The translations under genes were made by a program, and so were the position numbers. The notes under the pieces were generated by a model. That model was given only the letters and a program-made list of their open reading frames with translations. It was not told the origin of the DNA and made no database searches. From Tolypothrix sp. PCC 7712 (GTDB lineage: Bacteria > Cyanobacteriota > Cyanobacteriia > Cyanobacteriales > Nostocaceae), in NCBI RefSeq assembly GCF_025860405.1, contig NZ_CP063785.1, positions 4,929,390 through 4,961,389 on the forward strand: a DNA stretch of 32,000 nucleotides. The letters run 5' to 3'. Below are positions 14,859 through 19,918 of the stretch, piece by piece; within the stretch, counting starts at the first letter, position 1; each line of letters starts with the position of its first letter.

Positions 14859-16307
14859 TTACACTTGATAAACTTCATGCCCCCTAATTTCTACACCATG
14901 TGCAGCGAGACATTTTTCCCAGCCTTCACGGGTGCCAATTTCGCTTTTTTGCTGGAGTAGCCCTAGTTGCTGTTCTTGTTGGGTGAGTTTCGCAAATTCT
15001 TCGTAGAGTGGATAGTTTGGCGTGACAAAAGTTTCTTTACGGTGCAAAATTGGCGGATTGGTTCGGGTCTCGTAGTCGCGGTGAGTGATTCTGAGGGTTA
15101 GGAAGTCAATAATGATACTGGCTTTTAAGGCAGGGTGGGGGTCTGTGTCGAATTCTGGGTAAAAGAGATAGCAAATTTGCGGTTTATCAGTGCAAAATTT
15201 GATTAAAGTGGCACCATCTACACGCCCGATGGTACGGCTGGCGCAGCCTTCATAGATTCGCAGTAAAGCATCGAGTTCTGCAAGAGCAGAAACATGGACA
15301 TATAATGCCCCACGGGTATGTTTACCTATTTTGCTTTTTTCGCAAGCTGTTTGCACTACCCTGGGTTGTCCTAAGCTAAACAGTTTTTGGTCGGCGACTC
15401 CACAAGCTTCTTCGTAACTGCCAAAAAAGGCTTTGATGTCATGACGAATTTCTAGGGCGAGTTTCTGCCATGAGGGGCGTTGTTCAAAGTGGGTGAGGGC
15501 GAGATAAACTTGGATATCCAGAGAACGACGATAGGCGATCGCATCCCATTCTGCTTCATCGGTAGCTTGTAATACTACACCAAAGGCACGACGGAAGTTA
15601 CCAAATTCACTCAGTAGTTCCTGTTCGTTGCTCAATTCTCCTTTGACTGGTAATCTCCCGCGTTGGGTGAAAAAAGCCATCAATGGTGCCAGTAGTTCTT
15701 GGTAATCTTCAAAGCGCTTGCTGGGAATGCGAACTCTGGGCGTAGAAGTGCGAGAAAAGAAGCGGATGGCTTTGAAACTTTGTTTTTCGGCTTCATCGCG
15801 AAAGACAAAATAAACACCTAAAGCTACGGGTACAGCATCTACATTCAGTACCTCATCAATGTAACTTTTCAGTTCTTCTTGCTCGTAATATTTCTGAAAA
15901 GTATTGCGCCGGGTAACAATTCCATCACTGTAAGCTAATTGGGTTTTACTTGGGGCGTTAACTAAAACTTGTGCAGCGACAATTAAGACTTTGCGGGTGA
16001 GTTCCCAAGCTTTAATTAAGCTTTCCCGGCGTTCTTGAGTATCTTCAATAACATTGAGGACATAACCCAAATTCACAACATCGGCGGCGGTGATTTCATC
16101 CTCAGGATAATAATAAGGATCCCAGCCGCCACTGGTATAACCTAAATTTGCCACGCGCTGGACATCACCACCGTAGCCGCAACCGTAGTCAAAGAAAGTC
16201 GTTTCCTGATTGAGGATTGACCATTCTATAGCTAATCGTACCGGACGAGAGATATCAGTACGTGCGATCGCAGCTCTGTGACGCTCAATTTCTAACGCTT
16301 CAGGCAT
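14859..16307 (-). CDS. DNA phosphorothioation-associated putative SAM-methyltransferase (N-terminal class-I MTase plus about 350 aa of unknown sequence)
   Basis: 482 aa. SAM motif I is FFDYGCGYGGDV, followed by VVNLGYVLNVIED. The C-terminal region ends ...NPPILHRKETFVTPNYPLYEEF, which I recognise from the dnd-linked methyltransferase family. It lies 43 nt downstream of dndE on the same strand. Confidence 0.7.
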   Translation of the reverse strand: MPEALEIERHRAAIARTDISRPVRLAIEWSILNQETTFFDYGCGYGGDVQRVANLGYTSGGWDPYYYPEDEITAADVVNLGYVLNVIEDTQERRESLIKAWELTRKVLIVAAQVLVNAPSKTQLAYSDGIVTRRNTFQKYYEQEELKSYIDEVLNVDAVPVALGVYFVFRDEAEKQSFKAIRFFSRTSTPRVRIPSKRFEDYQELLAPLMAFFTQRGRLPVKGELSNEQELLSEFGNFRRAFGVVLQATDEAEWDAIAYRRSLDIQVYLALTHFEQRPSWQKLALEIRHDIKAFFGSYEEACGVADQKLFSLGQPRVVQTACEKSKIGKHTRGALYVHVSALAELDALLRIYEGCASRTIGRVDGATLIKFCTDKPQICYLFYPEFDTDPHPALKASIIIDFLTLRITHRDYETRTNPPILHRKETFVTPNYPLYEEFAKLTQQEQQLGLLQQKSEIGTREGWEKCLAAHGVEIRGHEVYQV

Positions 16308-16310
16308 AAT

Positions 16311-16340
16311 ACAGTCAACAGTTAACAGTCAACAGTTAAC
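16311..16340. repeat. STRR heptamers filling the dndE-methyltransferase spacer
   Basis: ACAGTCAACAGTTAACAGTCAACAGTTAAC belongs to the same heptamer family as 5573-5622 and 14683-14780. It ends 3 nt from the ATG of the methyltransferase. Confidence 0.85.
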
Positions 16341-16350
16341 TAATATCCTG

Positions 16351-17514: not shown

Positions 17515-17569
17515 AAGTAGTGATTAGCATAAAAAAACAAAAATTAGTCCTAATTAATCAACAATACTA

Positions 17570-17818
17570 TCAGTAACAATTGAAAAAATTAGACGATTTA
17601 TTTTTACATGATGCCACAGAGGCAATTTCTCTCTGTATATCTAAATCATTAGCCATTGCAGCTAGTTGTTGATTCATGGATTGCACATTAGCCAGTTGAT
17701 GAGATAATTGTTTCTTTTCTTGCACTTTGCTTTCGATACGTTCTAGGAGCCATTCTAGTTCTTCTAATGACAGATTACTTAAGTCACGCTCTATTTCTTT
17801 TAGATATGGTGAGATCAT
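17570..17818 (-). CDS. hypothetical 82-aa coiled-coil protein
   Basis: MISPYLKEIERDLSNLSLEELEWLLERIESKVQEKKQ... starts at the ATG at 17816-17818; the track's TTG extension is not needed. It is co-oriented with dndD and dndE. No family recognised. Confidence 0.45.
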   Translation of the reverse strand: MISPYLKEIERDLSNLSLEELEWLLERIESKVQEKKQLSHQLANVQSMNQQLAAMANDLDIQREIASVASCKNKSSNFFNCY

Positions 17819-17935
17819 AACTGCATATACCTTTGCCAAATGTTGTTAGATATATTGTAAATATCTGAGAGGAAATCAATTGCGATTACTTCTTCTGGTA
17901 ATCAGCTCATCACTCGATTATTTAGAAGAAAAATA

Positions 17936-19918
17936 TTACCAGAAATATTTATTGTTGATCACTGTGGTTTGACGAGTAGCAGAGTTGTAATCTAGGAGAT
18001 ATTCGTGAGCGATCGCTTCATTTTCTCTCAGTGTCTCAACTTCTTTTTTACCAATTTCTGTATCCGTAGAAAGCAAAATTACCTGGTGGCTGGCGGAGGG
18101 AAAGTACCGTTCTACAAGGTTACTGCGGTGGGATGAGTCGAGTCTGCCAAGGGGGGTGTCAATTGCTACTGGTAAGCGGCGACCGGAGACTCTAGCTAAA
18201 CCCCAAAGAAATGCGATCGCTAGTAGTTGTTTTTCGCCAGCAGAAAGGCGATGTTTGGGGACGGGTTTACCGTTTAAGTCGTACAGCGACAGGCTGAAAG
18301 TGTTGGTGTCAATCGCGACGCGATGAACTAAATCAGATTTATGTAACAGATAGCGGAAACATTCTGTGACTTCAACTTCTAATTTGTTGAGTTTTCTCAG
18401 AGTTAATTTCTTGCGGAAAAGTTTGAGGGTTTCTTGGACTCTCACCGCAGATTCAATAATATGTCCTTTGTTTTGAAGTTTAAGACTTGTATCTGTGTAG
18501 TTTTCTAAGTCTTTTTTAGTATTTTCAATCTCCGTTGCTAATTCATCTAAGCGACGTTTGGTAATTTCCCAAGCAGCTTTAGCTTCTGCAACTTGCTGTT
18601 GTGCTTGTTGTAATTCATCAACTAATCTTTGATATTCTTCCGGTGAGGCTGCGGTTTGAATTTGTCTTTCTAAGGTGATAATCTCTTCTTCTTGAGAATT
18701 CAGCAGCGTAATTTTATCTTTCGCTTTGGTTTTGGCATATTCCAAGTGATGATGGATGACATTATCTAATTGATGTAGGGTTTCTGTGTCAGCTAATAGC
18801 CAAGGTTCAGCAATGGCGGCGTTATCTAAATCTTGATTTTCTTGGGAGATAAATTCTTTAATTTGAGTCACTGCTGCTTGTTCAATAGCTAATTGATTAA
18901 TCAAATTGAGTAGCTTTTTATCTCTTTCAATTAATAAATCATGTGCCACTTTCGCTTGTTGAATGCGGAATTCCTCTTCACCTTGGTTATAAGCCTGATT
19001 TAATAGCGGTGTAATCAATCCTAGAGGTAAAAATTCGGCAGATAAATCACACAACGATTGGCGGATTTTTTCTGTTTCGGTGATTCTTTCTTGCTTTTTT
19101 TTCTCTAATTGGCTGCGTTCTCCGGCAATTTTGCCACCCTCAGAAATAAATTTATGTACAGCTTCCTGCTGTCTAGCTTCGGCGGCGGTTAAATTCTCTT
19201 GGAGAGATGTAATTGATTGGGATTCTTGATGATACGCCTCTTGTAATTCTTGCAACTTCTCTTCAATTTCTTCAATATTCGCTAAATCTTTAGTATCAGC
19301 CAGTTCCTTGCGTTTGCGATTGACTAAAATATCTAAATCTACCGCTAATCTATCGGCTAACTCTAAACCTAAAAGTCCGCTAATCGCATCTACTACAATT
19401 GGCGGTGGTATTTCTTGTTCTGCGAGTTCTTTAACTTGTTCGCCATCAAATAAAAATAAGTTAGATATTCCTACAGGTAGGAGATTTTCAATATATTCAT
19501 CCCAAATATTTACTAAAGCTGTATCTAGCCATTCATGGGCATCTAAAATACCTAAATGGTCTTTACCATCTTTAGGATTTTTTTCCCAAGTACGGACAAC
19601 GCGGTATTTTACTGGCTTGTCATTTTCGATATGTTCAAAAAGTAATTCAATGCGTGTCTTTTCTACTGGATCGGTTTTGCTATTAACGCATTGAGTGAGG
19701 AAATCGCTATAACTTAAATTACCACGAGTGGAACATTGAGCGCGATGCCCATAAAGTGCCAGGCGAATTGCGTCCATGAGGGTGGTTTTTCCGCCACCAT
19801 TCATTCCACCTAACAGAATAATTGGGCGAGAATTTTCATGATTTCTGGGGTCAAGATTGATTACTTGTTTACCAGCGTAGGGGCCAAAGTTTTGTAATAC
19901 GAGTTCGAGAAATATCAT
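17936..19918 (-). CDS. dndD: DndD-like SMC/ABC-type ATPase
   Basis: 660 aa. The N-terminus reads [17 protein letters not shown]...[27 protein letters not shown] (P-loop). A long central coiled coil follows. The C-terminus carries [18 protein letters not shown] and [17 protein letters not shown]. Confidence 0.85.
   Translation of the reverse strand: [660 protein letters not shown]

Follow-up and report, generated by a model that had tools for sequence, protein, structure and literature searches.

The dnd genes, which govern phosphorothioate (PT) modification of DNA, are enriched and vertically inherited in Nostocales, where varied configurations, incomplete clusters, and disordered operons have been described (Jian et al. 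2021, PMC8569181). We analyzed a stretch of 32,000 nt from Tolypothrix sp. PCC 7712 (NZ_CP063785.1, positions 4,929,390 to 4,961,389; hereafter the window, numbered from its first letter), in which dndD, dndE, and a methyltransferase gene of family TIGR04096 are encoded on the minus strand without a neighboring dndC. The window very probably carries the distal half (dndD, dndE, the TIGR04096 methyltransferase, and ampG) of a vertically inherited Nostocales dnd operon that was split by rearrangement, with the dndC half intact 693 kb away.

Comparison with described dnd systems

The canonical dndABCDE systems (Streptomyces lividans, Salmonella Cerro 87, and Escherichia coli B7A) and the Tolypothrix genome have the DndC, DndD, and DndE families in common, and there is no dedicated dndA here, as in E. 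coli B7A, where IscS substitutes for dndA. Unlike in these systems, the genes are non-contiguous, dndFGH is absent, a TIGR04096 methyltransferase is added, and a DGQHR protein represents a divergent relative of DndB.

That an ATPase-DndE core can recruit methylases instead of PT enzymes has been proposed for CxC-type ABC ATPase/DndE systems with cytosine methylases, in a re-annotation of PbeABCD (PMC10853773). The window resembles these systems in having an ATPase-DndE core beside a methylase and no neighboring dndC, but it falls outside their class because the genome has DndC, its ATPase is of the DndD type and carries no CxC motif, and its methyltransferase does not belong to the C5 or N4 cytosine methylases.

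The Nostocales operon was compared in Nostoc punctiforme PCC 73102 (CP001037.1, 5.58-5.60 Mb) and Calothrix PCC 7507. The order in N. punctiforme is dnd_assoc_4, DndB, a 316-aa open reading frame (ORF), a DndB-like gene on the minus strand, DndC, DndD, DndE, the methyltransferase, AmpG, a 136-aa ORF, GNAT, and HEAT, and Calothrix PCC 7507 has the same dnd gene order. The window is like this operon in its protein sequences (70% identity for DndD, 90% for DndE, and 87-88% for the methyltransferase), in gene order, in the ~45-nt spacing between dndE and the methyltransferase, and in the downstream ampG/GNAT/HEAT flank, which is the same as in N. punctiforme. It differs in that dndC, with all that lies upstream of it, is found on the other strand at a distance of 693 kb, and in that the gap between dndD and dndE holds a T5orf172 cassette, whereas in relatives the two genes are separated by a short spacer or by a toxin-antitoxin pair with PemK. 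Tolypothrix tenuis PCC 7101 (AP018248.1) has the same break between dndC and dndD, the same 443-nt spacer ahead of dndD, and DndD and methyltransferase proteins at least 90% identical to those of the window. In contrast, an intact antitoxin and PemK still separate dndD from dndE in T. tenuis, which has no STAND/orf145 insertion and retains DndB, orf316, and a full-length DndB-like gene at its dndC locus.

The dnd genes of the window

All three minus-strand ORFs are intact. The dndD gene (17936-19918), encoding a 660-aa ABC/SMC-like ATPase of PT modification, scored 726.6 bits against TIGR03185 (cut-off 245.85), and dndE (16351-16737), encoding the DNA-binding partner of DndD, scored 136.1 bits against TIGR03184 (cut-off 71.85) and matched PF08870 at E = 2e-44. 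The methyltransferase (14859-16307; 482 aa) scored 718.6 bits against TIGR04096 over residues 6-481 (cut-off 150), and a Pfam scan of the window protein itself gave no match. Downstream of it, at 13299-14615 of the minus strand, lies an ampG-family MFS transporter gene (TIGR00901, 512 bits), the syntenic anchor 3' of the methyltransferase in unsplit operons.

These results uphold the three gene calls of the first-pass annotation, a reading of the letters without database searches, along with the motifs it quoted, all of which were found in the translations. Its 43-nt spacer between dndE and the methyltransferase (16308-16350), its 369-bp intergenic spacer upstream of dndD (19919-20287), and its STAND gene divergent from dndD (an NB-ARC/TPR gene at 20786-22870) are also as described. 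The absence of DndC, DndB, and Pbe proteins that it noted was confirmed for the 32-kb window: when the larger ORFs were scanned with Pfam, NCBIfam, and PADLOC, no DndC, DndB, dnd_assoc_4, or Pbe protein was identified, and a relaxed tblastn of the window with Nostocales DndC, DndB-like, DndB, and dnd_assoc_4 proteins gave no match below E = 0.6, with no dndC remnant. Rfam likewise had no match in the window.

The dndC half of the operon

The window was 100% identical over 21,449 nt to AP018233.1 (GCA_002368275.1), the 8.89-Mb chromosome of Fremyella diplosiphon NIES-3275 / Tolypothrix sp. PCC 7601, on which each coordinate equals the window coordinate plus 1,843,362, so that dndD occupies 1,861,298-1,863,280 of the minus strand. 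A protein search with the DndC of T. tenuis (98% identity) identified an intact DndC of 555 aa (P0157), a PAPS-reductase-like PP-loop ATPase, which was placed by exact contig match at about 2,556,299-2,557,966 of the plus strand, that is, 693 kb away and on the opposite strand. P0157 scored 734 bits against TIGR03183 (cut-off 290) and 669 bits against the PADLOC DndC profile. Further, the assemblies of PCC 7601 and LEGE 11397 both contain identical DndC and methyltransferase sequences, which also turned up together in shared sequencing runs. The first-pass annotation had proposed a dndC-less PT-like module, and this proposal fails on the intact DndC of the same chromosome. It had also named a complete dndBC plus desulfurase set elsewhere in the genome, with ordinary PT dinucleotides, as the finding that would reduce the locus to a split operon; the chromosome carries the intact dndC, a dnd_assoc_4 gene, and a DndB-like gene, the last of these truncated.

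The neighbors of dndC include this DGQHR/DndB-like gene, dnd_assoc_4 (TIGR04062), a PbeA-like helicase of the dnd_restrict_1 family (TIGR04095, 669 bits), a 57-aa protein, and an ABC ATPase of the CxC type, with CIC at residues 338-340 and 1175 bits against PDLC02753. A Bax1-like (DUF790) and XPB helicase pair is encoded just downstream of dndC.

The segment at 2.546-2.568 Mb of AP018233.1 (L094/L095) holds a Pbe-like module without a called DndE cognate, and the match of its helicase to the PbeA profiles is confined to their helicase part. The DGQHR/DndB-like gene of F. diplosiphon abuts a DDE_5 transposase (L094:7230-9838, compared with L092:5942-9837), and the DndB and 316-aa genes, both present in T. 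tenuis and N. punctiforme, are absent from the F. diplosiphon dndC locus.

Arrangement of the operon across Nostocales

We surveyed DndC-anchored loci with one genome per species and mapped Dnd proteins on the best 80 of 441 DndC matches, among which T. tenuis ranked 79th; the window's own species fell below the best 80, and the survey alone is no test of the presence of dndC. Seven of the 80 loci were uninformative owing to a contig end. Among the 73 informative loci, dndC, dndD, dndE, and the methyltransferase were contiguous in 55, and 3 had dndC-dndD-dndE without the methyltransferase. In another 11, dndC-dndD was found with no dndE or methyltransferase within at least 5 kb, and in the remaining 4, dndD was missing for at least 5 kb around dndC. 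The operon was thus split between dndC and dndD or between dndD and dndE at 15 of the 73 informative loci, and contiguity is typical, not obligatory.

DndD orthologues were encoded between dndC and dndE in 58 Nostocales loci, and the methyltransferase followed dndE in 55 of these 58 contiguous operons, at a median spacing of 51 nt across the 55. In N. punctiforme, PCC 7507, and most of the 55 loci, the gene 3' of the methyltransferase encoded an AmpG homologue. Because the methyltransferase follows dndE in unsplit operons too, the pairing predates the split, and the methyltransferase was not recruited after loss of dndC; the first-pass suggestion that DndD and DndE had been re-partnered with it is not supported by this comparison.

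In T. tenuis PCC 7101, dndC without dndD was located at 5.21 Mb, and dndD, an antitoxin with PemK, dndE, the methyltransferase, and ampG followed one another at 3.54 Mb, with DndD and the methyltransferase falling in the same 90% identity clusters as those of the window. The 443 nt upstream of dndD (19919-20361 in the window, read on the minus strand; L182:9558-10000 in T. tenuis), which form the dndD side of the break junction, are common to both genomes at 91% identity. Since the two species share the break and these 443 nt, the split is older than their divergence. The dndC-dndD spacers of unsplit relatives had no detectable similarity to the window's upstream spacer or to the region downstream of dndC, and for this reason the break can be placed only to the dndC-dndD intergenic region. 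Calothrix brevissima NIES-22 and Calothrix sp. NIES-2098 also have dndC-less neighborhoods, yet DndC was identified elsewhere in both genomes.

The neighborhood of Calothrix sp. NIES-2098 (L011; AP018172.1, 1.48-1.51 Mb) has dndE and the methyltransferase alone, without dndD, divergent from a cluster encoding a DUF4007-like protein, a 146-aa ORF, proteins of 1535 and 731 aa, and BrxL. It may be Ssp-like or similar to BREX type 4.

Selection on the split genes

Nei-Gojobori ratios of nonsynonymous to synonymous substitution (dN/dS) between the window and the also-split NIES-22 were 0.09 for DndD, 0.05 for DndE, and 0.07 for the methyltransferase, and that of DndC between this genome and T. tenuis was 0.057. 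DndE gave 0.03-0.09 against its relatives. Taken together, the four genes in split genomes have ratios of 0.05-0.10, which argues for purifying selection and not for decay. The dndD, dndE, and methyltransferase ORFs were full length and identical in at least 4 assemblies or strains, and neither frameshifts in close relatives nor dN/dS near 1 was seen. The first-pass annotation had offered a split or decaying locus as one of two readings, with frequent frameshifts in relatives as a mark of decay; the split was borne out by the distant dndC, and the decay was not.

Proposed origin of the split and competing explanations

We propose that a chromosomal rearrangement cut the operon in the dndC-dndD spacer. 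This would most simply have been one inversion with one end in that spacer, since the halves lie on opposite strands. The proximal half, intact at its distant site, contains dnd_assoc_4, the DGQHR/DndB-like gene, and dndC, together with the Pbe-like helicase, the small protein, and the CxC-ATPase. From established knowledge of Dnd systems, DndC, drawing sulfur from a housekeeping cysteine desulfurase, would act in trans with the DndD-DndE DNA-scanning pair and yield ordinary PT DNA. The methyltransferase is a standing accessory of dndE in the Nostocales lineage.

Several points weigh against the split-operon reading. The single inversion is deduced only from strand and position, and PT linkages in this strain are predicted from gene content. 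In the promoter and terminator scan, sites were no commoner than chance, and promoters of dndD and of dndE-methyltransferase were not identified. The DndB-like protein of the dndC locus, beside an insertion sequence, has 433 aa compared with 532 aa in relatives. No cysteine desulfurase adjoined the dnd genes in any Nostocales locus examined, and none was located at the scale of these loci. A housekeeping enzyme of this kind (IscS/NifS/SufS) is expected from cyanobacterial iron-sulfur biogenesis. Finally, the best PADLOC label of the window ATPase was PbeC (PDLC02731, 985 bits) rather than DndD (804 bits).

This last ranking would fit a 660-aa ATPase that is a PbeC-type restriction ATPase and not the modification protein DndD, which we regard as exceedingly improbable. 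The PbeC/CxC clade is defined by its CxC motif (PMC10853773), and no C-x-C motif was found in the window DndD sequence, which scored far above the cut-off of the TIGR03185 equivalog. No PbeA (HKD nuclease with SF2 helicase), small PbeB protein, or PbeD is encoded beside the ATPase in the window; the PbeA-like helicase, the 57-aa protein, and the CxC ATPase are found at the dndC locus instead. Three observations speak for DndD: the window ATPase is without the CxC motif, its orthologues are encoded between dndC and dndE, and the dndC locus has the true CxC (PbeC-like) paralogue. We take the PADLOC label to be an artefact of naming.

The first-pass alternative of a different DNA mark can be put as a dndC-independent module that pairs DndD and DndE anew with the methyltransferase for writing or reading a methyl mark other than PT. 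It draws on the lack of dndC within 32 kb, on the published proposal that DndD/CxC-DndE cores recruit methylases in place of PT enzymes (PMC10853773), and on methyltransferase family members found without dnd genes (L010, L104). It is already largely refuted and, in our judgment, very unlikely: an intact DndC, subject to purifying selection, is encoded on the same chromosome; the pairing was seen in 55 of 58 contiguous operons and so is no response to dndC loss; the window ATPase lacks a CxC motif; and the methyltransferase fold resembles those of enzymes that act on small molecules and tRNA and does not resemble the C5 or N4 cytosine methylases. That the locus is a decaying remnant, left after loss of the front half of the operon, could be argued from the disrupted operon, the foreign AT-rich cassette between dndD and dndE, the lost toxin of the embedded toxin-antitoxin pair, and the truncated DndB-like gene at the dndC locus. 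Decay is nonetheless extremely unlikely when none of the three ORFs is shortened and at least 4 assemblies or strains carry them in identical form, dN/dS is 0.05-0.10 between two split genomes, and the split, being common to T. tenuis, has been maintained since before the species diverged.

This locus is one half of an already annotated dnd operon that was split yet is maintained by selection. It amounts to a rearranged known system, and disordered dnd operons were already known in this lineage (PMC8569181). A dndC-less writer built from DndD, DndE, and a methylase would have been a new DNA-marking system; with dndC in the genome, little is at stake in the question as posed. What the split operon does show is that selection can favor a DndC working in trans with DndD and DndE across hundreds of kb, and neighborhood-based surveys will therefore over-call "DndC-less" systems.

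The TIGR04096 methyltransferase

The methyltransferase has 2 domains. The N-terminal domain (15753-16307 of the minus strand; ~aa 1-185) has a class I S-adenosylmethionine (SAM)-dependent fold with motif I D40-x-GCG-x-G-x-D48, and the C-terminal domain (14859-15719 of the minus strand; ~aa 197-482; pLDDT ~95) carries an NPP[IV]LHRKE motif and many conserved polar residues. An AlphaFold2 model built with a diverse alignment reached a pLDDT of 94.8 and a pTM of 0.90; with a shallow alignment (60-96% identity), the N-terminal domain stayed below a pLDDT of 50 and Foldseek returned no match. The Foldseek matches of the model were SAM-bound methyltransferases, including 3h2b, METTL6, Trm9, and TehB (E = 6e-5 to 3e-3), and no DNA methylase was among the top 50. 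The Pfam family Methyltransf_23 matched 42 of 46 diverse family members, across which D40, G42, C43, G44, G46, D48, and D63 were conserved. Sequence, profile, and structure searches gave no PDB or BFVD match to the C-terminal domain, all listed matches covering the methyltransferase domain only. HNH_repeat matched weakly in 20 of 46 relatives, which hints at DNA binding by the C-terminal domain.

Two candidate assignments of the C-terminal domain were set aside. A PD-(D/E)xK nuclease is at odds with the helical position of the conserved D290 and with the lack of any D...ExK pattern that would fit the strands. The NPP[IV]L motif is unlikely to be the motif IV of amino-methyltransferases, lying 370 aa past motif I in the other domain and having no aromatic residue.

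Clustered at 50% identity, the family has 3644 representatives with E <= 1e-3 and 669 with E <= 1e-30, and within Nostocales the methyltransferase is 80-96% identical. It stays with dndE where dndD lies elsewhere, as in NIES-2098, but it is not strictly tied to dnd genes across the family, which has long forms and a phage-like copy. A methyltransferase beside dndBCDE in Fischerella has been treated as possibly independent (PMC12914056), and our search of the literature for TIGR04096 and its product name yielded no functional study, in keeping with the first-pass statement that no experimental function is known. Our best guess is that the methyltransferase acts on or at DNA together with DndE. 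We consider it rather improbable, though worth stating, that it is an integral enzymatic step of the cyanobacterial PT system, for example by methylating DNA at or near PT sites, the PT or persulfide sulfur, or DndE; such a step, if true, would add a second chemical layer to the backbone sulfur modification. Strong purifying selection, a conserved association with dndE, and a novel domain make the methyltransferase a reasonable target for study in a genetically tractable cyanobacterium.

Other members of the family were found in further settings. In the long forms (670-860 aa; L010:9956-12130 and L107-L109), an additional copy of the C-terminal ~150-aa subdomain opens the protein, and no dnd genes lie within 10 kb. 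One full-length copy (L104:9944-11419) lies on a phage-like contig, downstream of a terminase large subunit, and viral contigs often encode homologues of just the N-terminal domain. On a high-GC contig, a family member is encoded beside dndA, dndB, dndC, dndD, and dndE.

The dndD-dndE gap, insertions, and repeats

A point that the first-pass annotation omitted is that dndD and dndE are not adjacent: 1198 nt (16738-17935; GC 0.30) lie between them. The dndD-proximal part (17617-17935, minus strand) is common to T. tenuis, with ~95% DNA identity over the first 319 nt from dndD, after which similarity ends. It includes an orphan antitoxin ORF (17570-17839) with its 3' end replaced; over 68 aa, this ORF shares 96% identity with the 80-aa gene ahead of PemK in T. 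tenuis. The remainder is an AT-rich replacement cassette (16738-17616, plus strand) with a T5orf172/MUG113 (GIY-YIG-like) ORF at 17134-17514 (PF13455, E = 1e-18; PF10544, E = 5e-14), which occupies the site of the PemK toxin gene in relatives and gave no alignment to the T. tenuis gap. The cassette is no part of the dnd machinery.

Across the mapped DndC-anchored loci, the gap between dndD and dndE is an insertion hot spot in Nostocales, with lengths between 41 and 4846 nt (median 691). The gap of T. tenuis (L182:11984-12743) holds the intact 80-aa antitoxin and PemK, and that of Calothrix PCC 7507 (L013:8945-9539) holds PemK fragments; in the window, the antitoxin ORF persists, with its 3' end and the toxin replaced by the T5orf172 cassette. 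Upstream of the dndD spacer, the STAND gene and a 145-aa ORF upstream of it (20362-23438) form an indel relative to T. tenuis, which has only 690 nt there, and the two flanks are 91-97% identical.

An imperfect palindromic element (GTAGGTTGG...CCCAACCTAC) lies at 19990-20075 within the dndD upstream spacer and is like the dispersed repeats of cyanobacteria. The repeat finder did not report it; it is probably what led the first-pass annotation to call the spacer repeat-bearing. Between the STAND gene and a 188-aa ORF, we identified a 42-nt array and an array of 3.6 copies of an 84-nt unit (23031-23149 and 23187-23492). Heptamer tandem repeats of a type common in Nostocales (TGTTGAC x14 and ACCCATT x5) flank the methyltransferase at 14681-14841 and at 16311-16340, the latter within the dndE-methyltransferase spacer.

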